From an uncultured Thiotrichales bacterium (lineage in GTDB: Bacteria; Pseudomonadota; Gammaproteobacteria; GCA-2400775), in NCBI GenBank assembly GCA_964447985.1, contig CAYUVE010000036.1, positions 1 through 15,238 of the forward strand: DNA of 15,238 nucleotides. Direction: 5' to 3'. A program made the translations under genes and the position numbers. The first letter of the stretch is position 1. Each line of letters opens with the position of its first letter. Positions 3,349 through 14,919 of the stretch are shown piece after piece. Under the pieces are notes generated by a model. That model made no database searches, was not told the DNA's origin, and worked only from the letters and a program-made list of their open reading frames with translations.

Positions 3349-3815
3349 TGGATTACGAAATAGTGAAATGGCTCCATATTTTAAGTGCCACCTTACTTTT
3401 CGGTACCGGTCTAGGGAGTGCTTTTTATAAGTATATGGGTGATAGATCTCAAGATATTTCAACGATTGCTTACACCAATAAGCATGTTGTGTTAGCTGAT
3501 TGTGTGTTCACTACACCTACAATCGTCATTCAACCAATTACTGGGCTGATTCTTGTTTCGATAATAGGGGGTTCTATTACCGATGTATGGGTAATACTTT
3601 CCATAGTTTTTTACACATTAGCGGGACTATGTTGGTTACCTGTTGTGGTTTTACAAATAAGAATGTCAAAAGCAGCTGAGGCTGCACGGTTAAATAATTC
3701 AGAATTACCAGATAGCTATTGGAGATACACGAATCAATGGTTTTGGCTAGGCATACCCGCTTTTTTGTCAATGATGCTAGTGTTTTTATTTATGGTATTA
3801 AAACCAGGGGCGTAA
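3348..3815 (+). CDS. DUF2269-family integral membrane protein
   Basis: The ATG overlaps the upstream TAA (TAATG), indicating translational coupling. The sequence MDYEIVKWLHILSATLLFGTGLGSAFY..., with four hydrophobic helices, is typical of DUF2269. The ORF track's 3264 start overlaps the upstream gene and is unlikely. Confidence 0.7.
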   Translation: MDYEIVKWLHILSATLLFGTGLGSAFYKYMGDRSQDISTIAYTNKHVVLADCVFTTPTIVIQPITGLILVSIIGGSITDVWVILSIVFYTLAGLCWLPVVVLQIRMSKAAEAARLNNSELPDSYWRYTNQWFWLGIPAFLSMMLVFLFMVLKPGA

Positions 3816-3819
3816 TACG

Positions 3820-4254
3820 ATGATAATCAAAGAAGATATAGCACCATATGTTTCCAAAGGCGATAAAGTCATACTGTTTGATGGGGTGTGCAAACTATGT
3901 AGTGCATGGAGTCGTTTTATCATCAAGTACGATACGGCCCATATATTTAGACTCGCTTCTGTGCAATCAAGAGAAGGGCAGTCGATTCTCAAACACTTTG
4001 ATCTTCCGACTGACTACTTCGAAACGATGCTCTATGTAGAAGAATGTGTTGCTTATGAGAAAAGCGATGCGCTATTCAAAGTATTGATACAGTTGCCAAG
4101 GCCGCTATGCTGGCTAGCTTGCGGCGCTATTTTTCCCAAGCCCGCACGCAATTGGGTCTATGACCGTATCGCCTTGAATCGCTATCAGCTATTTGGCAAG
4201 TATCAGCAATGTTTGCTTCCTCACCCTGATCACGAGACACGCTTTTTATCATGA
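3820..4254 (+). CDS. DCC-family (DUF393) thiol-disulfide oxidoreductase
   Basis: Hallmark motif ILFDGVCKLCSAWSRFI (FDGxCxLC) near the N-terminus. The protein is 144 aa. There is a 4-nt gap after the upstream gene. Confidence 0.8.
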   Translation: MIIKEDIAPYVSKGDKVILFDGVCKLCSAWSRFIIKYDTAHIFRLASVQSREGQSILKHFDLPTDYFETMLYVEECVAYEKSDALFKVLIQLPRPLCWLACGAIFPKPARNWVYDRIALNRYQLFGKYQQCLLPHPDHETRFLS

Positions 4255-4646
4255 CAGGTTCAGGATATGAAAAGATAAACTTAATGTCGAGAACGACATT
4301 AGCTTTCGTGTTCTTCTACCACGGATTGGTTTCAAAAATCATTATTATGGACGATTCAGAGCGTGAAATTATTGAAGCCCATGCGTTTTTATCTTCTTCC
4401 GATGCTATTTTATTGGCTTCTGGTGTGGCGGAAATTATCTTGGCTACACTGTTGGTCATTTTTAGGAACTCATTACTCACGATATATTTAGTAATAGTTA
4501 TATTGTTACTATTGTTGATCGATATCGCTCTATTTACGCCACATATCCTTTTTCAAGCGTTTAGCCCAGTAACTTTAAATATGGTGTGTTTAGTCCTGTG
4601 CTGGGTGGTGATTATCACTCATCAAAACAAAGGGGAATTACCATGA
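4251..4646 (+). CDS. DoxX-like family small membrane protein. An alternative start lies at ATG 4284.
   Basis: ATGA overlap with the upstream stop. The AFVFFYHGLVSKI motif and 3-4 TM helices match the DoxX-like architecture. Confidence 0.7.
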   Translation: MTGSGYEKINLMSRTTLAFVFFYHGLVSKIIIMDDSEREIIEAHAFLSSSDAILLASGVAEIILATLLVIFRNSLLTIYLVIVILLLLLIDIALFTPHILFQAFSPVTLNMVCLVLCWVVIITHQNKGELP

Positions 4647-6196
4647 GTGTTGATAAGAAATACGATGTTATCGTCGTTGGCGGTGGGTTGTCTGGTATGG
4701 CAACGGCGATGTTGCTGCAAAATCAGGGGAACAAGACGTTGCTTCTAGAAGCACATTCTCGCCTTGGCGGTTGTGCGGGGTTTTATCGTCGAGATAAGTT
4801 CAGTTTTGATATTGGTGCAACTACCTTGGTCGATTTTAATAAAGACGGTGTTGGCGGCAATTTTTTACAAAAAGTGGGTTTGCAACCAATAAAGGATGAA
4901 TTACTGCCTGGTTATATGGCGTGGTTGCCTGATCGTCGTGTGGAAGTCGCTTCTGACAATACTCGTTGGCAGCAAGAACGTTTAAAAATGTTGGGAGATT
5001 CTAATAGCCATAGAAGATTCTGGAATACGCTCGACGAAATAGCTGATACCTACTGGCAAGCTTCCAGGTCGGGATTAAAAATGCCCATGCGTTCATTCTC
5101 TGATATGTATCGAAATTGGAAGGCGCTAGACTTCAAAGGGTTGATGATGTCGCCATATTTGTTTTCATCAATGGGTGATTTACTTAGGAAAAATGGTTTG
5201 CAAAATGACCGTCCGCTAGTAGGTTTGTTATCAATGATGATAGAAGATACCGTTCATGCCAAAGTCGATTCCGCGCCCCTTATAAATTCGGCATTGGGCG
5301 TCACAATTCGAGGTGCAGGTTTGGCCAGACCAGTAGGAGGGATGCGCGGTTTCTGGCGTCAGCTTGCTAAACGTTATGTCGAGATTGGTGGCACAATTAA
5401 ACTGAATGCGTACGTTAATCAGATTAGTGGAAAATTAGGCAGTTTCTCAGTTAGAGCAAAGAAAAACAAGTTTCAAGCTTTACAAGTTGTTAGTGCATTA
5501 CCTATTCAAAATACTGCAAAAATTGCCTCACATTGCATAGGTAAGCAAGTGCGACAGTTTATCGAGCGTGATAATAAAGCCTTAGGTGGCGGTATAGTGG
5601 TATGCATCGGTGTTCCTGAGAACCAAGTGATAAATTCACCAAGCGGTCATCGTCACCATCAGCTGCTGCAGTCTTATGAGCGAGATCTGGGTAATGGAAA
5701 TAATATGTTTATTTCAATTTCTGCGGAGGAGGATACATTGAGTGCGCCTGAAGGGTTTCGCTCAGTAATGATTTCAACTCATTGTGAACTAGATGAGTGG
5801 AAATTTCTTAATCATTACGAATATCGAGCTGCGAAGAAAAGTATTACTAAAAAACTTATTACTTACGCTCGTCGCGTATATCCGGCCTTAGGTGAGACAT
5901 ACAAAGTGCTCGAGACGGGTACTCCACGTACTTATAAGTTGTTTACTGATCGTTTTGGTGGGTCAATTGGTGGTGCACGTTTGTCGATGCAAAATGCAAA
6001 TCAAAGAGCAGTACCTTACGACTTAGCCACTCCAGGACTATGGATGGTGGGCGATACGACATGGCCAGGACTTGGTACGGTCGCGTGTGTCATAGGTGCG
6101 AGCCACGTAAGTGAAGGCGTGATGGAGTTATTTCGCGATACTAAACTGCAAGTACGTTCTCATCGTAAAGGTTTAGTGCCGAGTTTACAGTTATGA
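4643..6196 (+). CDS. NAD(P)/FAD-dependent oxidoreductase of the phytoene-desaturase (CrtI/amine-oxidase) family
   Basis: Start at ATG 4643, preceded by AAAGGGG and overlapping the upstream stop (ATGA). The N-terminal dinucleotide-binding motif YDVIVVGGGLSGMATAMLL...LLLEAHSRLGGCAG matches the CrtI/amine-oxidase family. The C-terminal end ...GLWMVGDTTWPGLGTVACVIGA is also typical of this family. The protein is 517 aa. Confidence 0.8.
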   Translation: MSVDKKYDVIVVGGGLSGMATAMLLQNQGNKTLLLEAHSRLGGCAGFYRRDKFSFDIGATTLVDFNKDGVGGNFLQKVGLQPIKDELLPGYMAWLPDRRVEVASDNTRWQQERLKMLGDSNSHRRFWNTLDEIADTYWQASRSGLKMPMRSFSDMYRNWKALDFKGLMMSPYLFSSMGDLLRKNGLQNDRPLVGLLSMMIEDTVHAKVDSAPLINSALGVTIRGAGLARPVGGMRGFWRQLAKRYVEIGGTIKLNAYVNQISGKLGSFSVRAKKNKFQALQVVSALPIQNTAKIASHCIGKQVRQFIERDNKALGGGIVVCIGVPENQVINSPSGHRHHQLLQSYERDLGNGNNMFISISAEEDTLSAPEGFRSVMISTHCELDEWKFLNHYEYRAAKKSITKKLITYARRVYPALGETYKVLETGTPRTYKLFTDRFGGSIGGARLSMQNANQRAVPYDLATPGLWMVGDTTWPGLGTVACVIGASHVSEGVMELFRDTKLQVRSHRKGLVPSLQL

Positions 6197-6612
6197 CATA
6201 TCAAGAAAAAATATTATCTACGGTTTTCTTATCTGCCGCGATATACAACGTGGTATGGGGAGTCTTAATTATTTTCTACCCGAACTTGATATTCAAAGTC
6301 TTTGATATCGAACCGCTTAACTATCCGTTCTTAATGAGTGGTATCGGGATGTTTGTTGCCGTTTATGGATATGGATATTGGGTTGTGTCCAGAGATTTAT
6401 ACTGCTATCCGCAGCTTGTTGTTATAGGTTTGCTCGGAAAAACACTAGGGCCTATAGGATGGGGCTTTACTGTATTAAATGGCGATATTCCGGGGAGAAC
6501 ATTATGGGTCAATGTATTTAATGACTTAATTTGGCTACCATTCTTTGTTTATTATTTGTTTTGGTATCAAAAATATAAACAAAGAAATGATTTCAGCATC
6601 GACACCGCTTAA
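6193..6612 (+). CDS. Small hydrophobic membrane protein (139 aa), translationally coupled to the FAD oxidoreductase
   Basis: ATGA overlap with the upstream stop. Predicted TM helices: LSTVFLSAAIYNVVWGVLIIF, FLMSGIGMFVAVYGYGYWVV, LIWLPFFVYYLFWY. Confidence 0.65.
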   Translation: MTYQEKILSTVFLSAAIYNVVWGVLIIFYPNLIFKVFDIEPLNYPFLMSGIGMFVAVYGYGYWVVSRDLYCYPQLVVIGLLGKTLGPIGWGFTVLNGDIPGRTLWVNVFNDLIWLPFFVYYLFWYQKYKQRNDFSIDTA

Positions 6613-6700
6613 GTGAAATATAAGATTAGCGTTACAAAATAGAAATAGTGACAGCATAAGTATTCGCTTCTTTATAAAAACGTAGGGGTAATATTTCATT

Positions 6701-7711
6701 ATGAATAGTAATGAAAAAGATATTGTTAAAAAAGATTCTAGGTTGGAGTTTTCTGCTTGGATACCTCTTTTCGCTGGAGCCACTTATGGGATATTAATGC
6801 GAATCTTATTTGAGATGTCAAGCTTCTCAGATAAAGATTTAGAGGTGATGACTTTTGCATTTATCATTATCGTTCCTATTGCTGTGGGTGTTGTAACGGT
6901 TGTTTTTGCAGAAGCAAAAAAAAGTCATGGCTTTTTGTATTTTATCTTTGCGCCTTGGGCCTCCATTACTATATTTGTCCTTGGAACGGCTATCTCATTA
7001 CTTGAAGGTCTGATTTGTATTGCTATGGCATTTCCCCTTTTTCTTGTCCTCGGGTCATTTGGAGGCTTAGTCGCAGGTATAGTTACTCGGTATACGATTC
7101 ATAGAAAGTCCATTGTGACATGTGTTGGGGTGTTACCTATTTTGGTTGGGTTCTACGAAGCAGGAGAACCGATGTCAAATATCTATGCTGAAATCAGTAG
7201 AGATATTTATATTGAGGCGTCTCCGAATACAGTTTGGCACCAAATAAATTATCCAACTAACATTAAACCAAAAGAACTTAAAAACGGATTTGCTTATAAG
7301 ATAGGTGTCCCATATCCGATAGAGGCCAGAACGCTAGAGGAGCGTGTTGGTGGTATGCGAAACCTTATTTGGCAACGAGGGATCACCTTTCGGGAAGAGA
7401 TTACAGCTTGGGAGGAAAACAGATATATCGCATGGAATTATATTTTTGATAAAAATTCGTTTCCTCCTGGTTCAATGGATGATCATGTGGTGATTGGGGG
7501 TAAGTACTTTGACTTGAGAGAGACGTCTTATACATTAATACCAACGGGTAAAGGCACATTACTAGTACTCAAAGTTGGCTACAGAGTGAGTACTAGCTTT
7601 AATTGGTATTCTCAATTTTGGGGAGACTTTCTAATTGCTGATACAGCTGAGACTATACTGGAATTCTACAGGAATAGATCAGAAGCTAGCATAAGAAATT
7701 TATCTAAATAA
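6701..7711 (+). CDS. Membrane-anchored SRPBCC (Bet v1/START-like) domain protein
   Basis: About 130 aa of N-terminal TM helices, then a C-terminal region with an SRPBCC-like layout: IYAEISRDIYIEASPNTVWHQINYP...GGMRNLIWQRGITFREEITAWEENRYIAWNY. AGGGG lies about 12 nt upstream of the ATG. Confidence 0.65.
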   Translation: MNSNEKDIVKKDSRLEFSAWIPLFAGATYGILMRILFEMSSFSDKDLEVMTFAFIIIVPIAVGVVTVVFAEAKKSHGFLYFIFAPWASITIFVLGTAISLLEGLICIAMAFPLFLVLGSFGGLVAGIVTRYTIHRKSIVTCVGVLPILVGFYEAGEPMSNIYAEISRDIYIEASPNTVWHQINYPTNIKPKELKNGFAYKIGVPYPIEARTLEERVGGMRNLIWQRGITFREEITAWEENRYIAWNYIFDKNSFPPGSMDDHVVIGGKYFDLRETSYTLIPTGKGTLLVLKVGYRVSTSFNWYSQFWGDFLIADTAETILEFYRNRSEASIRNLSK

Positions 7712-7762
7712 TGTGACGAATAAGTCTAGACGTGCTAGTTAATTTTTTATTTAAAAAACTAT

Positions 7763-7790
7763 TTGACTTTTATTTTTTTAAGCGTAAGAT
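7763..7790 (+). promoter_or_regulatory. Sigma70-type promoter: -35 TTGACT (7763-7768), 16-bp spacer, -10 TAAGAT (7785-7790). An A/T-rich UP-like tract lies upstream.
   Basis: The -35 hexamer is perfect and the -10 matches at 4 of 6 positions, just downstream of the stop of the 6701 gene. The predicted TSS near 7797 would initiate the long non-coding region. Confidence 0.45.
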
Positions 7791-7796
7791 GCGCGC

Positions 7797-8714
7797 CACT
7801 ATGAATAAATTGAACTCACAAATGAATGTTCTTGCTAGCGCACTTGGCGGTTATCGCCTTTATGCGTGCGGCGCGAGCACGCGTGTTCAAAACCTCGAAC
7901 AGGTTTTGTGGCACATATCATTTGATGGTGAGAGTCAAAACATAACGTAGTTCTCTTTTAGGAGGACTGCGTGGCAGTCTTCCTAAGTCTTTATAAAACT
8001 AGGCTTTAGACGACTGTCAGTCTCTGAGGTGCTAGTGATTCTGGGCTGCTTTGTCGTCGAGCCTACTTCTTACTCTCAGAGCAGAAAGCGTCCTACAAAA
8101 CGTGGACATGTTGCGATAGCGGGTTCTTTGGGTCCCGTCTGGCACAAGGCACGCTGTGTTGTTGTGTACCTCATGTTTGCGAGTTGTATCGACACCATAG
8201 GTAGCTCATGGGCAGAGCAGCGAACTGATAATTCGTCGGTAGTGGGTTCGAGTCCCACCCTAGAACAGCCTGCAAAGCTGTTACGCGTAAGCGTACTAAG
8301 TAAAAAACTAGGTGAGAGGCTTCTCGGTTAATGTGTTTGATGGTTAAACGAATATGAAATGGAATTCGCGCTAACAACGGATGGTTTGGCCTGTGTGATA
8401 GACAACGAAATGAAGAACGAACTGTGGCGCTATCGTAGATAGGGAGGCGAAGAGACATAGCTGTGTAGTTAGGCAGCAGTGTCTCGCGATAGACGGGTAA
8501 GCGACTACTCATTTTGACGGTATCACCCGCTAAGACAACGTGGGAAGCCTCTTCATCTTTTTGAAGAGTGACCAATGGTTATATGAAAGAAATGAATGAT
8601 GAAATGAAAGGAGATTAGCAATGAAAACGTAGATGTGTCGGTGACGGCAGCCCGTAAGGTGCACCGAGTGAGAAATGCCGGGCTTATGTTGTGAAATAAA
8701 TAAAGGAAACAATC
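7797..8714 (+). ncRNA. Roughly 900-nt non-coding, hairpin-rich leader or structured RNA preceding the SPFH-RtcB genes. Extent and boundaries are uncertain.
   Basis: No credible ORF: only short, mutually overlapping ORFs on both strands, without RBS context. Stems include 7864-7882 (gcgtgc/gcacgc), 7888-7908 (caaaacct/aggttttg), 7958-7986 (13 bp with one GU, 3-nt loop, sequestering AGGAGG), 8263-8281, a tacgc-GUAA-gcgta tetraloop hairpin, and 8549-8568. The tRNA-like element lies at 8195-8266. Confidence 0.45.
8195..8266 (+). ncRNA. tRNA-like element (pseudo-tRNA, Y-RNA-like or other tRNA mimic) with a defective acceptor stem
   Basis: Folded by hand. U8-A9 ta; D-arm gctc-atgggca-gagc; anticodon stem gcgaa/ttcgt with 7-nt loop ctgataa (U33, anticodon GAU, A37); variable loop cggta; T-arm gtggg-ttcgagt-cccac with a canonical TTCGAGT loop. 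The putative acceptor pairs ccatagg with cctagaa in only 4 of 7 positions. Discriminator is c. No CCA is encoded. Confidence 0.5.
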
Positions 8715-9839
8715 ATGTTAAAAATGAAAAGAGTCGTGATTGCACAGCACGAGCGCGGGTTATACCTAGAAGATAGAAGTATTGTCCGTGTGTTGTCGCC
8801 AGGTGTTTATTGGAGCCTGAGCACAAGAGTGCACATCGTGGTCTTAGATACACGTAATGTGGAGGTAATCCACGATGCAGTATCGGCCTTGGTTGAAAGC
8901 AATCGAGAATTGGCCGAACAATATTTCCAGGTATTAGATCTTGGTGAATATGAAATCGGTCTGTTGTATCAGAGGAACACATTACAAAGGGTGTTAGCGC
9001 CAGGTGAACGTTATGTTTTCTGGAGAGAGAATAAAGATTTGCGAATCGATATTGTCGACATCAAAGAAGACTACCGTTTAGCTAAAGATCTGGCAAAGGT
9101 CTTAGTGAGACGTTCTATTCGTAATGCATCAGAAGCTGTTTACCCAGTAGAAGTGGCATCAGGTCATATTGGTCTGCTGTGGGTGGATGGTGAGCTGATT
9201 GATAGCTTAAAGCCTGGTGTTTACGCCTACTGGCGTTATAACCGTAACATTAAGGTTGAGCATGTTGATCTACGTTTGCAGGCGATTGATGTCTCAGGTC
9301 AGGAAATTCTGACTAAAGATAAAGTCAGCTTACGGATTAACTTAACGGCAGTTTATAAAGTTGTCGATGCGGTAACGGCACGATTAGCGGTAAATGTGTA
9401 TTCAGACCATGTGTATTTGCAATTACAACATGGTTTACGCGAAGCCGTAGCCACACGAACGCTAGATACGTTACTGGCAGATAAGGAGTCTTTAAATGGT
9501 GAGTTGTATCAAACCGTAAAAGCTAACTTAGCTGAGTATGGTATTAAAGTGGATCGTGTTGGTGTTAAGGACATTATCTTGCCTGGTGATATGAAAGATA
9601 TTTTGAACCAGGTTGTGGCGACTGAAAAGGCCGCCCAGGCTAATGTTATCCGTCGGCGTGAAGAAACCGCTGCAACAAGATCGTTGCTGAATACTGCAAA
9701 ACTGATGGATGAACATCCAACATTGATGCGGTTAAAGGAGATTGAAGCGTTAGAAAAAGTCACTGAGAAGGTAGATCGTATTACCGTCTACGATGGCTTA
9801 GATGGTTTGCTTCGAGATACCGTTAAGCTGCAGGTCTAG
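8715..9839 (+). CDS. SPFH/Band-7 (stomatin/prohibitin/flotillin-like) domain protein, no TM segment, with a triplicated N-terminal beta-motif
   Basis: RBS AAGGA lies 7 nt upstream. The SPFH core is recognisable: ...KPGVYAYWRYNRNIKVEHVDLRLQAIDVSGQEILTKDKVSLRINLTAVYKVVD...GIKVDRVGVKDIILPGDMKDILNQVVATEKAAQANVIRRREETAATRSLLNTAK. The N-terminal 150 aa contain two extra copies of the GLLx..L..VL.PG.Y..W motif. The C-terminus is helical and charged. Confidence 0.8.
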   Translation: MLKMKRVVIAQHERGLYLEDRSIVRVLSPGVYWSLSTRVHIVVLDTRNVEVIHDAVSALVESNRELAEQYFQVLDLGEYEIGLLYQRNTLQRVLAPGERYVFWRENKDLRIDIVDIKEDYRLAKDLAKVLVRRSIRNASEAVYPVEVASGHIGLLWVDGELIDSLKPGVYAYWRYNRNIKVEHVDLRLQAIDVSGQEILTKDKVSLRINLTAVYKVVDAVTARLAVNVYSDHVYLQLQHGLREAVATRTLDTLLADKESLNGELYQTVKANLAEYGIKVDRVGVKDIILPGDMKDILNQVVATEKAAQANVIRRREETAATRSLLNTAKLMDEHPTLMRLKEIEALEKVTEKVDRITVYDGLDGLLRDTVKLQV

Positions 9840-9940: not shown

Positions 9941-11137
9941 ATGCCAATTAAACAGGTGATTAAAAAAGGCAAAGTACCCGTCAAAATCTACACCAATGAT
10001 ATTGACCCAGGTGCTTACGAGCAGTTAGCGAATATGGCGCAGATGCCTTTTATTCATTCGCATATTGCTGCCATGCCTGACGTGCATAAAGGAATCGGTG
10101 CCACCGTGGGTTCAGTGATACCAACAAAGGGCGCTATTATTCCTGCTGCCGTGGGGGTAGATATTGGCTGCGGTATGAACGCAGTGCGTCTGAGCCTAAG
10201 TGCCAATGAATTGCCGGATAACTTGAAAGGCCTACGTAGCGCTATTGAGCGCGATGTGCCTGTCGGTTTTGCTATGCATAAAACGGATGCCGTGCCAGAT
10301 TCAACTGTCAGGGCTTTATCTCCAGGGCTAGAGACTATTTGGGGTAAACACCCAAAGTTAAAGCCGAAAAAGAAAAAGCCTTTTCATAGTTGGGTGAGAC
10401 AGTTAGCGACACTAGGTGGCGGTAACCATTTTATCGAGTTATGTCTTGATGAAAATAATGACGTCTGGGTAATGTTGCACTCGGGCAGTCGTGGCGTAGG
10501 TAACGCCATTGGTCAGTACTTTATTGAACTGGCGAGACGAGACATGGAAAAGATTCAAAAGAATCTGCCAGATCGTGACTTGGCTTACTTTACCGAAGGT
10601 ACCGATCATTTTGATGATTATTTACAAGCCGTTAGTTGGGCGCAGGATTATGCTATGACTAATAGGCGTGAAATGATGCGTATCCTTATCAAGGTGTTAC
10701 AGCACAAACTGCCTGCATTTAAAGTGACAAAAGAAGCCATTAACTGTCACCACAACTATGTAGACGAAGAAGTGCACTATGGCGAATCGGTCTTTGTCAC
10801 CCGTAAAGGTGCTATCAGAGCCAGCGAAGGCGAGTACGGGATTATTCCCGGCAGTATGGGTGCAAAATCTTTTATCGTCAAAGGTAAAGGTAACCCAAGT
10901 TCGTTTTGTTCCTGCTCACATGGTGCTGGTAGGGTAATGAGCCGTACTGCAGCGAAAAAGCAGTTCACCAGTGTTGATCTGGAAGCCCAGACCAAAGGTG
11001 TCGAATGTAGAAAGGATAAATCAGTGATTGACGAAATCCCTGCTGCATATAAAGACATCGATACCGTCATGGATAACCAAAAAGACTTGGTGGAAGTAGT
11101 GCATACCTTGAAACAGGTTGTCTGTGTCAAAGGCTAG
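9941..11137 (+). CDS. rtcB: RtcB-family RNA 3'-phosphate/2',3'-cyclic-phosphate to 5'-OH ligase (short form, 398 aa)
   Basis: RBS AGGAAG upstream. All RtcB active-site motifs are present: MPDVHKGIGATVGSV, VGVDIGCGM (metal-ligand Cys), GGGNHFIELCLD, MLHSGSRGVG, CHHNYVDEE, and SFCSCSHGAGRVMSR (the His that becomes guanylylated). Confidence 0.85.
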   Translation: MPIKQVIKKGKVPVKIYTNDIDPGAYEQLANMAQMPFIHSHIAAMPDVHKGIGATVGSVIPTKGAIIPAAVGVDIGCGMNAVRLSLSANELPDNLKGLRSAIERDVPVGFAMHKTDAVPDSTVRALSPGLETIWGKHPKLKPKKKKPFHSWVRQLATLGGGNHFIELCLDENNDVWVMLHSGSRGVGNAIGQYFIELARRDMEKIQKNLPDRDLAYFTEGTDHFDDYLQAVSWAQDYAMTNRREMMRILIKVLQHKLPAFKVTKEAINCHHNYVDEEVHYGESVFVTRKGAIRASEGEYGIIPGSMGAKSFIVKGKGNPSSFCSCSHGAGRVMSRTAAKKQFTSVDLEAQTKGVECRKDKSVIDEIPAAYKDIDTVMDNQKDLVEVVHTLKQVVCVKG

Positions 11138-11192: not shown

Positions 11193-11318
11193 TGCTTAAT
11201 CGAAATAAATATCAAGCAACACCGGGTGGCGTGGTGATATACGCCACCGATTTATTCGACTCGATTTATATAAGATTTTTAAAAGGTTCTAACTATGGAA
11301 ACAAAGCTATTAAATGAA
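11193..11318 (+). CDS. Possible 41-aa small ORF (MLNRNKYQATPGGVVIYATDLFDSIYIRFLKGSNYGNKAIK) overlapping the start of the next gene
   Basis: A strong SD AGGAG lies 6 nt upstream of the ATG. The ORF's stop overlaps the 11295 gene by 24 nt, which could allow coupling. Against it, the ORF contains an 8-bp hairpin (11225-11248, ggtggcgt/acgccacc). It could therefore be a leader peptide, a regulatory structure, or spurious. Confidence 0.25.
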
Positions 11319-12221
11319 GTCATAGCGTGTTTGCCAAAAGGTAAAACACATTATCGCTATTACAAAAATGCCTATGCTGCCAAATTATTGAATATGGCGA
11401 TGCGTCACGACGCGCCTATAAAATCAGTACGTCGGTCGCGCTATGCTAAGTTGTTGAATAATGTATTACTAAAGGGTGTCGTCGCCAATAGTGGCGATGG
11501 CGTTGTGCGTAAGCAGCAACTCGACAGCTTGTGGCAGGAACCTTCGTTACCTTTCATATTGACAGCGGCAAAGTGGCGCTATTGTTCACGTGGCTGGTCG
11601 CAGGTGTCAAGACCAGGCGATAATCTTGTGTTACAGCTTAATATGTCGACACAGCATGATCAGCTTTATGAGCGTTATGTTCACAATTATGATTTTAATC
11701 CATACACATGTCATCCGGTGTTATCAAAGCGGAGAAGATCGATAGCTAGAGAGACTTTAGCCTGGTCACGTATAGATTTTGATTTATCTTCTGACGAAGC
11801 GTTAATCGAAGAGATACAAAGTGATGCTATCAGAGAAATGTTGTGGTTAAAAAATTACACTATGAAACGTGATGACAGTCGTAGTCGCAATGATAAAACC
11901 TATCTAGAATGGTTTGAACCGTATTTAAAGTGTTGGCAAGAAGCGATGTTAATGGCCACGGTAGAATTTATTCGCTACGAACTTGGGATCAGTAGAATTT
12001 ATATTCATACTGATACGTCGGGTTGGAAAGTAAAGAAAATGCGAAAGAATTGGCTGCCACCAAAGTCTTTGTATTCTGATTTGCCAAGGAAATTTGCCTT
12101 TAAGCAAACCTGGAATGCGCCAGAGTTTTTACTGGGTACGCGCGGATATAAAAATCTTATCCGCAAGCAGCCGGATATTGATTTTTATCTTTTAGACTTT
12201 ACTCAGTCCATTGCAGCGTAG
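11295..12221 (+). CDS. Hypothetical protein (308 aa) with no recognisable domain, encoded downstream of rtcB
   Basis: Clean ORF in operon orientation. Composition is basic and aromatic-rich (many R/K/W/Y). I could identify no HEPN, PIN, GGQ, P-loop or Rossmann motif by eye. Confidence 0.7.
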   Translation: METKLLNEVIACLPKGKTHYRYYKNAYAAKLLNMAMRHDAPIKSVRRSRYAKLLNNVLLKGVVANSGDGVVRKQQLDSLWQEPSLPFILTAAKWRYCSRGWSQVSRPGDNLVLQLNMSTQHDQLYERYVHNYDFNPYTCHPVLSKRRRSIARETLAWSRIDFDLSSDEALIEEIQSDAIREMLWLKNYTMKRDDSRSRNDKTYLEWFEPYLKCWQEAMLMATVEFIRYELGISRIYIHTDTSGWKVKKMRKNWLPPKSLYSDLPRKFAFKQTWNAPEFLLGTRGYKNLIRKQPDIDFYLLDFTQSIAA

Positions 12222-13086: not shown

Positions 13087-14919
13087 CTAGTTTAAGGAGT
13101 CATGGTCCTCTTTACGTATACCAAATATTTTCATTCGATAGTTGAGTGTTGAGGCTTTAATGCCCAATAATTCAGCAGCGCCATCTTTTCCCCAGACTTG
13201 CCAATTAGCACTGCGAAGTGCAGCAATAATGTTATTTTTTTCCATTTCGCGGATCTCAGCGTCCGTGAGGTAATCTGTATTTTTTGTTTTCGACTGAGAT
13301 ACTAGGGTTTCCTGAGGTGCGAGTTTAGGGAGGACTAAATCGAGCCGAGCGCGGCCGCCTTTACTTAAGATGGCAGCACGCTCAATGGTATTCTTGAGTT
13401 CTCTTATATTACCTGGCCAGTCATGTTGTTTAAGGTGATTAACTTGTTGTTTTGAGAGTTTTAATGACTCTCGACCGAGTTGTGTACAACTACGGTTAAG
13501 AAAATGTTGTGCAATGGGTGCAATATCATCGGTGCGTTCACGTAGTGGCGGTACGTTAATAGGGAAGACACTTAAACGGTAAAATAGGTCTTGGCGAAAA
13601 AGGCCTTTCTTAATCTGTTCTTCAAGATTTAAATTCGTTGCAGCAATAATGCGAACGTCCACTTTAATGGTTTTATCATCGCCTACGCGTTCAAATTCAT
13701 ATTCTTGTAATACACGTAATAATTTGCTTTGCAGATCAAGCGGAATTTCGCCAATTTCATCGAGAAATAATGTACCGCCATCGGCAAGTTGCATACGGCC
13801 TATTCGGTCTCGATGTGCACCGGTAAAGGCGCCTTTTACATGACCAAAAAATTCGCTTTCAAATAAGTCTTTCGGGATAGCGGTGCAGTTGACCTTAACT
13901 AAGGGCTTACTGCTACGATCGCTCTTAGCATGAATAGCACGTGCAATCATTTCTTTACCTACACCCGATTCGCCTAGTAATAAGACGTTGGCTTGTGTTG
14001 TGGCTACGGCATCAATCTGTGCCATGGTGCGCTTTAAGGCATCGCTATCGCCAATAATTTCTCCAAAATCAGAAGTCACATTTATTTCATCGCGTAGGTA
14101 ATCGCGTTCGAGTTCAAGTTGCTGTTTGAGGTGGTTAATTTCCCGGTAGGAAGCTTCGCGTTGTTTCTCGATTTCTTTACGTTCGGAGATATCACGAAAA
14201 ACGACAACGGCGCCAGCGAGTTTTCCGTTTTGACGAATAGGTGTGCTGGTGTATTCCACGGGTATGGGTGAGCCGTTGGCATGCCAGAATACTTCATCAT
14301 CGACATGATGTACTTCGCCGTCCTTGAGTGCGGCATAAACGGGGCATTCGTCTCGTGGATAGATTGAACCATCTACCCGGGTATGGTGATGAACATCATG
14401 AGCGGGTTTACCGATGACGTCTTCGAGTTTCCAACCAACAATTTCAGTAGACGCGGCATTGGCAAAGATGGTCATGCCATTAGCGTCTAAGCCGTAAATT
14501 CCCTCACCAGCGGCGTTAAGAATGGACGCATGTTCTGTTTCTAAGCGCTCGAGCTTGGTTAAGGCTTCGTCGAACTGATCATTATGGTTTATGTGTAGTG
14601 CTAACCATGGTTTGTCATCGTCGTCTCTCGGCAGTGACCAGGCAGACATCAAGCCATGCACGACACCGCTTTTTCCATTGATGGAGACAGGAAGAGCTTG
14701 TAGCGGTTTTTCCTCGGTCCTTGCTTGCTGCAGTGTTTCCACCAACATCGAGTCTTCTTCAATATCAAAGAGTCTATCTAACGGTAAGACAGTGTCGTCG
14801 CTATTGGCCATGCCGAGATGCTGTGCCCAGCCCTGACTGATATGCCGACAGACGAGTTGTGCATCGAGTAAGCCGAGAAGAGTCGGTGCTTCATTCAGTA
14901 GCTTTGTTGTTGTGAGCAT
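13087..14919 (-). CDS. Sigma54-dependent transcriptional activator (bacterial enhancer-binding protein) with N-terminal PAS-type sensor domains and a C-terminal Fis-type HTH
   Basis: AAA+ sigma54-interaction core: LLLGESGVGKEMIARAIH (Walker A), ESEFFGHVKGAFTGA (GAFTGA motif), GGTLFLDEIGE (Walker B), WPGNIRELKN. The N-terminus contains PAS-like repeats (GIYGLDANGMTIFANAAS...). The C-terminal HTH is AAELLGIKASTLNYRMKIFGI. Confidence 0.85.
   Translation of the reverse strand: MLTTTKLLNEAPTLLGLLDAQLVCRHISQGWAQHLGMANSDDTVLPLDRLFDIEEDSMLVETLQQARTEEKPLQALPVSINGKSGVVHGLMSAWSLPRDDDDKPWLALHINHNDQFDEALTKLERLETEHASILNAAGEGIYGLDANGMTIFANAASTEIVGWKLEDVIGKPAHDVHHHTRVDGSIYPRDECPVYAALKDGEVHHVDDEVFWHANGSPIPVEYTSTPIRQNGKLAGAVVVFRDISERKEIEKQREASYREINHLKQQLELERDYLRDEINVTSDFGEIIGDSDALKRTMAQIDAVATTQANVLLLGESGVGKEMIARAIHAKSDRSSKPLVKVNCTAIPKDLFESEFFGHVKGAFTGAHRDRIGRMQLADGGTLFLDEIGEIPLDLQSKLLRVLQEYEFERVGDDKTIKVDVRIIAATNLNLEEQIKKGLFRQDLFYRLSVFPINVPPLRERTDDIAPIAQHFLNRSCTQLGRESLKLSKQQVNHLKQHDWPGNIRELKNTIERAAILSKGGRARLDLVLPKLAPQETLVSQSKTKNTDYLTDAEIREMEKNNIIAALRSANWQVWGKDGAAELLGIKASTLNYRMKIFGIRKEDHDSLN

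Follow-up and report, generated by a model that had tools for sequence, protein, structure and literature searches.

We analyzed a 15,238-nucleotide (nt) stretch of DNA from an uncultured Thiotrichales bacterium (contig CAYUVE010000036.1, here called the window) and found that a tRNA-like element at positions 8195-8266 of the forward strand is very probably a b7a-type (band-7-associated tRNA-like) RNA. The element is housed in an ∼1-kb gap free of open reading frames (ORFs; 7712-8714) and is followed on the same strand by genes for an SPFH/Band-7 protein (8715-9839), RtcB (9941-11137), and a 308-amino-acid (aa) protein (11295-12221), the SPFH start lying 448 nt downstream of it. We consider it likely that the element is a non-decoding tRNA mimic encoded upstream of the SPFH/Band-7 gene, which in this genome is then followed by rtcB. 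The assignment draws on ARAGORN, on the Rfam tRNA model, and on a covariance model (R1) and covariation counts that were both based on an alignment of 63 orthologous elements (A3).

ARAGORN made a single tRNA call in the 15.2-kb window, a tRNA-Ile(GAT) at 8195-8266, and the Rfam tRNA model (RF00005) matched there with 48.7 bits (E value, 5e-8; gathering score, 29). The Rfam alignment is limited to model positions 4 to 67, so the outer acceptor stem was left out of the match. In the predicted fold, the 5′ acceptor strand occupies 8195-8201, of which only 8198-8201 pair, with 8259-8262; U8 and A9 are present in the ARAGORN drawing. The D arm (8204-8218) has a 4-bp stem, GCTC/GAGC, and the anticodon arm (8220-8236) has a 5-bp stem, GCGAA/TTCGT, with the loop CTGATAA at 8225-8231 and the “anticodon” GAT at 8227-8229. 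A 5-nt variable loop (8237-8241) separates this arm from the T arm (8242-8258; 5-bp stem GTGGG/CCCAC, loop TTCGAGT), and the 3′ acceptor strand (8259-8265) ends beside C8266 at position 73. The acceptor stem thus contains only four pairs (4 to 7 with 66 to 69); CCA at positions 1 to 3 stands opposite GAA at positions 70 to 72, and no CCA follows.

This fold agrees throughout with the sequence-only reading of the window, which had described canonical D, anticodon (GAU), and T arms, U8/A9, and a 5-nt variable loop, together with unpaired acceptor positions 1 to 3 and 70 to 72 and no encoded CCA. ARAGORN and the Rfam tRNA model, which that reading had named as suitable checks, both recognize a tRNA at this site. 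For the isolated 72 nt, the cloverleaf is the minimum-energy structure; its z-score is only −0.74, so energy alone does not separate the element from shuffled sequence. Model R1 scored the window copy at 64.9 bits (E value, 5e-19), and the element is far beyond a chance match.

For comparison, we collected 80 reference-genome loci encoding SPFH relatives (44 to 64% identity), mostly from Gammaproteobacteria and some from Betaproteobacteria, and added four closer metagenomic contigs to give 84 related loci. In 70 of the 80 reference loci, ARAGORN reported a same-strand tRNA-like gene that precedes the SPFH start by 263 to 625 nt (median, 404), and R1 recovered the element in most of the loci that ARAGORN missed. 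An independent profile hidden Markov model detected at least one same-strand element no more than 750 nt upstream of SPFH in 79 of the 81 loci with at least 700 nt of upstream sequence, and two elements in 27 of them; opposite-strand elements within the same distance were absent from all 81. The SPFH gene is the constant and tightest genomic neighbor of the RNA.

Across A3, 92.9% of cells hold a standard pair, versus 68% with shuffled partners and 37 to 48% with slid ones. Changes on both sides of a pair occur at all five positions of the anticodon stem and at four of five in the T stem, and acceptor pairs 4 to 7 are ∼95% paired and covarying. The D stem GCTC/GAGC is invariant, as are U8, A9, A14, A21, T54, T55, C56, A58, and T60 in 63 of 63 sequences; these invariant bases are those that build the tRNA elbow and core, parts of the molecule held under very strong constraint. 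Aligning homologous loci in search of compensatory changes in the arms, as the sequence-only reading had proposed, therefore reveals covariation in the anticodon, T, and inner acceptor stems. Its view that the element is not a recent tRNA-Ile pseudogene is also borne out, and we regard the element as genuinely tRNA-like.

Both the acceptor end and the anticodon loop are variable. Pair 1:72 is unpaired in 39 of 62 elements, 2:71 in 22, and 3:70 in 13, and NCCA is encoded in 13 of 63 (21%). The acceptor stem of the window copy, earlier called broken, does lack its outer pairs, but this is not a defect of one copy: it is the extreme of a family trait. The anticodon is similarly unconstrained, with 25 different triplets among the 50 seven-nt loops (most commonly CAT [10], GAT [7], and TTT [4]), U33 in only 36 of those 50, and loops of 4, 6, or 8 nt in the other 13 elements. 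Within a 630-nt region that is 83% identical among eight Competibacter loci, four anticodon-loop columns reach entropies of 1.3 to 1.8 (mean, 0.44), and two of these loop columns rank within the ten most variable of 629.

The closest relative (L081) encodes an SPFH protein 98% identical to that of the window, and its genes are 95 to 97% identical at the DNA level. Its element carries CAT in place of GAT, a compensated T-stem change from GTGGG/CCCAC to GCGGG/CCCGT, and a better-paired acceptor stem. Comparing window positions 8181-8430 with L081:2982-3225, identity is 43% in the 14 nt 5′ of the element, 90% in the element, and 73% in the next 164 nt; the flanks of this divergent stretch are 96.7% and 99.3% identical. 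The hot spot of divergence resembles a segment replacement or very fast local evolution.

Some bacteria encode RtcB beside a Band-7 domain protein and a predicted noncoding RNA (bioRxiv 10.1101/312249). According to this YrlA structure paper, the RNA, called b7a-tRNA, bears a strong likeness to authentic tRNA, was predicted by Burroughs and Aravind in 2016, and was experimentally unvalidated as of 2018 (bioRxiv 10.1101/312249). The window shows exactly this arrangement of tRNA-like RNA, Band-7 protein, and RtcB, and we therefore place its element as a new member of a computationally defined class. Its cloverleaf is recognized by tRNA models, it adjoins a Band-7/SPFH gene on the same strand with RtcB in the same neighborhood, and it is homologous, by R1 score and compensatory changes, to elements at orthologous SPFH loci; nothing that defines the class differs. 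The abstract of Burroughs and Aravind (2016) reportedly puts forward SPFH/Band-7 modules, along with “a novel tRNA-like molecule,” as cofactors that might provide a scaffold for RNA repair. Our literature search returned neither an experimental study of b7a-tRNAs nor any later paper on them. Several features seen here may or may not be part of the 2016 description: the fraying of positions 1-3:70-72, the hypervariability of the anticodon, the tandem copies, and the anticodon-loop-like hairpin and leader pseudoknot described below.

The RNA seems to extend beyond position 73. Hairpin A (8265-8281, forward strand; A-CAGC / CTGCAAA / GCTG-T) resembles an anticodon stem-loop and starts within the unpaired 3′ acceptor bases 72 and 73. 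In 32 of 52 loci, versus 13% of shuffles, a hairpin whose stem has at least 4 bp and whose loop has 7 nt begins no more than 14 nt from the 3′ end of the element; YU occupies loop positions 1 and 2 in 24 of the 32 and A occupies position 6 in 27. Members of the close clade show covariation in this stem (CAGC/GCTG, GCAC/GTGC, and CCAAC/GTTGG). The window has two anticodon-like loops, one in the element (GAU) and one in hairpin A (GCA). Hairpin B (8282-8295, forward strand; TACGC / GTAA / GCGTA), predicted by RNAfold, is capped by a GNRA tetraloop. Its GNRA-capped homologues have different stems in L082, L084, L039, and L001, and many more loci have GGC-GAAA-GCC. The next module in many loci consists of TGGTAA, a short hairpin (often GGC-GAAA-GCC), and a perfect T arm, GCGGTTCGAATCCGC, forming a tRNA-like structure that lacks a D arm (alignment A5; e.g., L002:3678-3745, L003:971-1040, L004:3558-3625, L009:3578-3642, and L011:3546-3605). 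This second module is degenerate in the window, and its T arm has been lost from both the window and L081.

On the other side of the element, a T-arm-like hairpin at 8119-8138 (forward strand; GCGGG / TTCTTTGGGT / CCCGT; alignment A6) is, judging from the aligned loci, probably a remnant of the upstream copy of a tandem tRNA-like pair. A full second tRNA-like element occupies this site in L084, L039, and L001 (A6) and is absent from the window, and L082 keeps the hairpin with the compensatory change GCTGG/CCAGC. The 27 loci with two elements have them in direct tandem, often abutting with no spacer (e.g., L039:3498-3640, L084:5504-5657, L001:3514-3666, and L053:3462-3613). Among Lysobacterales/Xanthomonadales-type loci (Dyella, Pseudoxanthomonas, Luteimonas, and relatives), the upstream tandem copy often has a 6-nt anticodon loop.

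In the same upstream region, the sequence-only reading had raised a possible long-range pairing of ttctggg (8039-8045) with cctagaa (8259-8265), which would close a structure of ∼220 nt but might be chance. The complementarity is present, but the closure is unsupported, and we treat it as chance. By a rough estimate, not a computed one, about one such match is expected by chance per ∼1 kb. The pairing appears in one minimum-energy fold of 8030-8300, with an ensemble frequency of 1e-4 and a z-score of −1.1. In L081, the 3′ strand reads CCTATAG while 8039-8045 is unchanged and the acceptor stem pairs better, and the more distant relatives L084, L039, and L001 hold their second tRNA-like copy in that upstream space.

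Close to the ribosome-binding site (RBS) of the SPFH gene, we predict an H-type pseudoknot at 8638-8680 on the forward strand, with P1 formed by TCGGTG (8638-8643) and CACCGA (8662-8667) and P2 by CGGCA (8645-8649) and TGCCG (8676-8680). It lies ∼35 nt before the SPFH start codon (∼35 to 60 nt at homologous sites) and may be a cis-regulatory element of that gene. In an alignment of 14 loci (A7), 93% of cells are paired and 7 of 12 pairs have changed on both sides, versus 20 to 50% of cells paired in slid controls. Homologous sites include L082, L004, L009, L003, L007, and the Competibacter loci, and an analogous pseudoknot occurs in the Lysobacterales/Xanthomonadales-type loci; no Rfam family matches it. 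A generic pseudoknot finder was positive for 70 of 84 real leaders and also for 62% of shuffled ones; given this lack of discrimination, we base the pseudoknot on the homologous alignment instead. The leader segment 8431-8714 is 99.3% identical to that of L081, above the coding genes, and an nhmmer search with the 448-nt spacer found no matches in the 80 reference loci, indicating that conservation of the leader does not reach beyond individual clades.

Within 7500-9000, a terminator-like site occurs only at 7957-7987, before the element, and there is none between the element and SPFH; thus, the element probably belongs to the SPFH-rtcB transcription unit. Its earlier placement in the SPFH-rtcB leader accordingly stands, in the sense that it heads the transcription unit. 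A sigma-54-like motif, TGGCACaaggcACGCT, at 8140-8155, 40 nt upstream of the element, is at most a candidate promoter: it has two mismatches, and matches this good occur in the window at chance level; the full sigma-54 consensus occurs in only 1 of 85 scanned sources (the 84 loci and the window). We discounted a PAS-AAA+ sigma-54 activator encoded 3.2 kb downstream (13087-14919, reverse strand), which is not RtcR (339 bits against a cutoff of 650). L081 has different genes after the 308-aa gene, so this activator probably lies outside the system.

Farther upstream, a 53-aa ORF (7789-7950) is preceded by a promoter-like site, TTGACT-16-TAAGAT (7763-7790), and followed by the terminator-like site at 7957-7987, a 14-bp hairpin. 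A called gene in L081 matches the site of this ORF, with a 96% identical peptide, and tblastn found no match to it in the loci other than L081. Between a DoxX-like gene and the small ORF, window positions 4586-7711 encode an FAD/amine oxidoreductase, a 139-aa ORF, and a 336-aa ORF without an assigned family. These three genes are absent at the same place in L081, which marks an insertion or deletion directly upstream of the RNA region.

Several explanations compete with that of a non-decoding tRNA mimic. The element could be a functional, unusual decoding tRNA-Ile(GAU) co-transcribed with the operon: ARAGORN and Rfam both call a tRNA, the core positions are perfect, the loop CUGAUAA has U33 and A37, and CCA can be added after transcription. 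However, a canonical tRNA-Ile(GAU) combines a 7-bp acceptor stem and 3′ CCA with an anticodon and a 7-nt, U33-containing loop that are conserved among orthologues. Here there are four acceptor pairs and no encoded CCA, the 3′ acceptor bases 72 and 73 are drawn into hairpin A, and the orthologues range over 25 triplets and some 4-, 6-, or 8-nt loops, with CAU already in the nearest strain; we regard a decoding role as very improbable. Decay of a tRNA gene, or an integration (att) site of which this is a remnant (the latter suggested in the sequence-only reading), would fit the truncated acceptor stem without CCA and the different gene content just upstream in the window and L081. Such a remnant would hardly persist in 79 of 81 loci spanning Gammaproteobacteria and Betaproteobacteria with its stems kept by compensatory changes; moreover, no repeat of the 3′ half of the element exists in the window, and the scanned ORFs yielded no integrase domain. 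We give that explanation almost no credence, and conclude that the element is neither an ordinary decoding tRNA nor a relic.

A YrlA-type bacterial Y RNA, binding Ro60/Rsr, is a further alternative. YrlA is a non-decoding tRNA mimic whose tRNA-like domain has conserved D and T stems but lacks a free CCA; it is encoded beside rtcB in other bacteria, is presumed to assist a ring-shaped protein scaffold in repairing or degrading RNA, and occasionally swaps genomic context with b7a-tRNA (bioRxiv 10.1101/312249). The two differ in partner, Ro60/Rsr for YrlA and, by genomic pairing, SPFH for the b7a element. They also differ in architecture, since YrlA is permuted, its RNA ends forming a Ro-binding stem in the anticodon-stem position and its acceptor forming a closed stem-loop, whereas the arms of the window element follow the normal tRNA order and its anticodon arm is closed, with a 5-bp stem and a 7-nt loop. 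A scan of the 17 largest ORFs in the window detected no TROVE/Rsr domain. A cmscan search of 7600-8800 at E values up to 10 returned no Y RNA match from Rfam 15, the Y RNA content of which was not verified; it returned the tRNA, a weak antisense plastid hit (E value, 0.041), and chance-level matches (E values of 1.9 or higher). The earlier suggestions of a Y-RNA-like tRNA mimic or an RtcB substrate or decoy hold in so far as a tRNA mimic tied to RtcB fits the b7a-tRNA prediction, and fail for the YrlA type, which we consider highly improbable here.

The tRNA-like fold could instead be a cis-acting leader signal for processing or stability (an entry point for RNase P, RNase Z, or RNase E) that, jointly with the RBS-proximal pseudoknot, sets the SPFH-rtcB mRNA level and does nothing as a free RNA. 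The same-strand position at a restricted distance from the SPFH start, the lack of an intervening terminator-like site, the further conserved leader structure including the covarying pseudoknot, and the segment 8431-8714 that outdoes the coding genes in conservation are all consistent with this. On the other hand, a mere processing signal needs neither an invariant D stem nor D/T-loop tertiary bases maintained over very distant taxa, and it leaves the tandem copies in 27 loci and the YU-NNN-A anticodon-like loops unexplained. We think it quite unlikely that a cis role is the whole answer, and note that cis-leader and trans-acting RNA readings are compatible and not mutually exclusive.

The 374-aa SPFH/Band-7 (“slipin”) protein (8715-9839, forward strand) matches Pfam Band_7 (E value, 8e-29). 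Its AlphaFold model (mean per-residue confidence score pLDDT, 80) shows a beta-rich N-terminal region of ∼140 aa, the SPFH domain, and a long helix. Foldseek matched the model to stomatin, HflK/C, prohibitin, QmcA, and flotillin, with E values down to 1e-12, all of which have been solved as large ring or cage assemblies. The N terminus has no evident hydrophobic segment when the sequence is read by eye, no predictor having been used, and the beta-rich N-terminal extension (residues 1 to 142; 8715-9140) resembles two repeats. We found no homologues of the protein in phage records. Vaults (MVP, vault RNA, and TEP1) offer a parallel, since their major protein has an SPFH-like “shoulder” domain, the cage is associated with small structured RNAs, and one vault protein carries a TROVE domain like that of Ro60. 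The likeness lies in an SPFH scaffold that would be paired with a small RNA; vaults are eukaryotic, vault RNAs are not tRNA shaped, and no RNA homology is implied.

The next gene (9941-11137, forward strand) encodes an RtcB RNA ligase, which joins 3′-phosphate or 2′,3′-cyclic phosphate ends to 5′-OH ends (Pfam RtcB; E value, 9e-132). It is followed by the gene for the conserved 308-aa protein (11295-12221, forward strand), whose family is unassigned, with no match in Pfam, NCBIfam, PADLOC, or PDB sequences. Homologues of this protein occur beside SPFH/RtcB in nine loci (33 to 55% identity in distant loci and 95% in L081), which makes it a probable additional component of the system. It shows no similarity to the RlaP-type nucleotidyltransferase of Escherichia coli, a candidate identity that we rejected.

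Of 5426 complete E. coli genomes, 1629 (∼30%) have an island between yjbD and lysC. Its products are a slipin that shares 42% identity with the window SPFH protein, the nucleotidyltransferase RlaP (“RNA repair pathway”), and a member of the zeta-toxin family (e.g., L085:3460-5922 in STEC639, and L086 in the WAT chromosome, 4473553-4476968). The 530-nt leader of the island in L085 contains a near-consensus sigma-54 promoter, TGGCACgcttcTCGCA, at 3684-3699 and a T-arm-like hairpin, TGGGTTCGATTCCCA, at 3810-3824, and it has no full tRNA-like element and no annotated RNA. The slipin-RlaP island could serve as a convenient model, though its leader shows only the T-arm-like hairpin.

Extra tRNA genes tied to RtcB provide another comparison. 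Such genes share the genomic and regulatory link to RtcB and have been proposed to act as spare tRNAs or as “sponges” for toxin RNases; cyanobacteria are known to have tRNA arrays whose regulation is shared with rtcB (PMC8421152). In contrast to the window, which has no array and whose element is no normal tRNA, these arrays comprise apparently functional tRNAs with 7-bp acceptor stems and CCA. Same-strand arrays of 5 to 20 tRNA genes lie just upstream of the b7a element and SPFH in 12 of the 80 reference loci (L002, L003, L006, L007, L008, L009, L029, L032, L040, L060, L078, and L080; e.g., L002:411-2755 and L032:773-2727), and the members inspected have 7-bp acceptor stems and encoded CCA. 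We found no report linking tRNA arrays with SPFH and b7a in Proteobacteria.

If the element is a non-decoding tRNA mimic, it would be transcribed at the head of the SPFH-rtcB unit, fold into an L shape, and serve the SPFH oligomer, a putative ring or cage scaffold, as its RNA partner, much as Y RNA serves Ro60. The companion Ro60-Y RNA system has been studied. The tRNA-like body and its variable anticodon-like loops would be presented to tRNA-recognizing enzymes. Its most likely task would be either to bait, decoy, or sense nucleases that attack the anticodon loops of tRNAs or, as a cofactor shaped like a tRNA, to unite RtcB with damaged tRNA for religation; RtcB would reseal either the bait or the damaged tRNAs. 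We advance this bait or cofactor mechanism tentatively. Given the variable anticodon-like loops, we find the bait, decoy, or sensor the most attractive of the specific roles. VapC- and PrrC-type nucleases classically target CAU and UUU loops, and the presence of CAT and TTT among the commonest triplets is suggestive only.

Several observations weigh against the view that the element is a trans-acting mimic of this kind. We identified no promoter: a sigma-70 scan of 7790-8893 gave no promoter-like site, and the sigma-54-like motif at 8140-8155 is not conserved in L082 or most other loci. We infer contact between the RNA and the SPFH protein from their co-occurrence only. An RtcB homologue lies no more than ∼4 kb from SPFH in only 47 of the 84 related loci, and unrelated genes follow SPFH in some, so a repair role with RtcB is not universal; the latter result comes from Pfam spot checks only, crude “next ORF” clustering of downstream genes being noisy in GC-rich loci. 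The divergence between the window and L081 runs 164 nt past the element and therefore looks like segment replacement, not targeted change. Finally, anticodon variability could reflect a plain absence of constraint and not selection for diversity.

A broader version of the tRNA-mimic reading, which we find doubtful, is that a modular structured RNA of ∼0.5 kb heads the SPFH operon, its hypervariable anticodon-like loops being exchangeable baits for anticodon-loop nucleases that RtcB would reseal in or on the SPFH cage. Besides the tRNA-like body, this RNA would include the second tRNA-like copy or its remnant, another mimic of an anticodon stem-loop that stacks on the frayed acceptor end, the GNRA hairpin, and the RBS-proximal pseudoknot. 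Cutting of the bait and resealing by RtcB would sense or absorb attack and tune operon expression.

Together, the window and the 84 related loci give the b7a element a structural definition: the elbow and D stem are invariant; the anticodon, T, and inner acceptor stems covary; the acceptor end is frayed; and the anticodon varies freely. The predictions that follow are that the RNA is non-decoding, binds SPFH, and uses its anticodon loop as bait, and they touch on the question of how a tRNA-shaped RNA could help an RNA-repair ligase. If the modular arrangement is true, it would represent an RNA-based decoy or sensor arm of bacterial conflict systems, undescribed so far.

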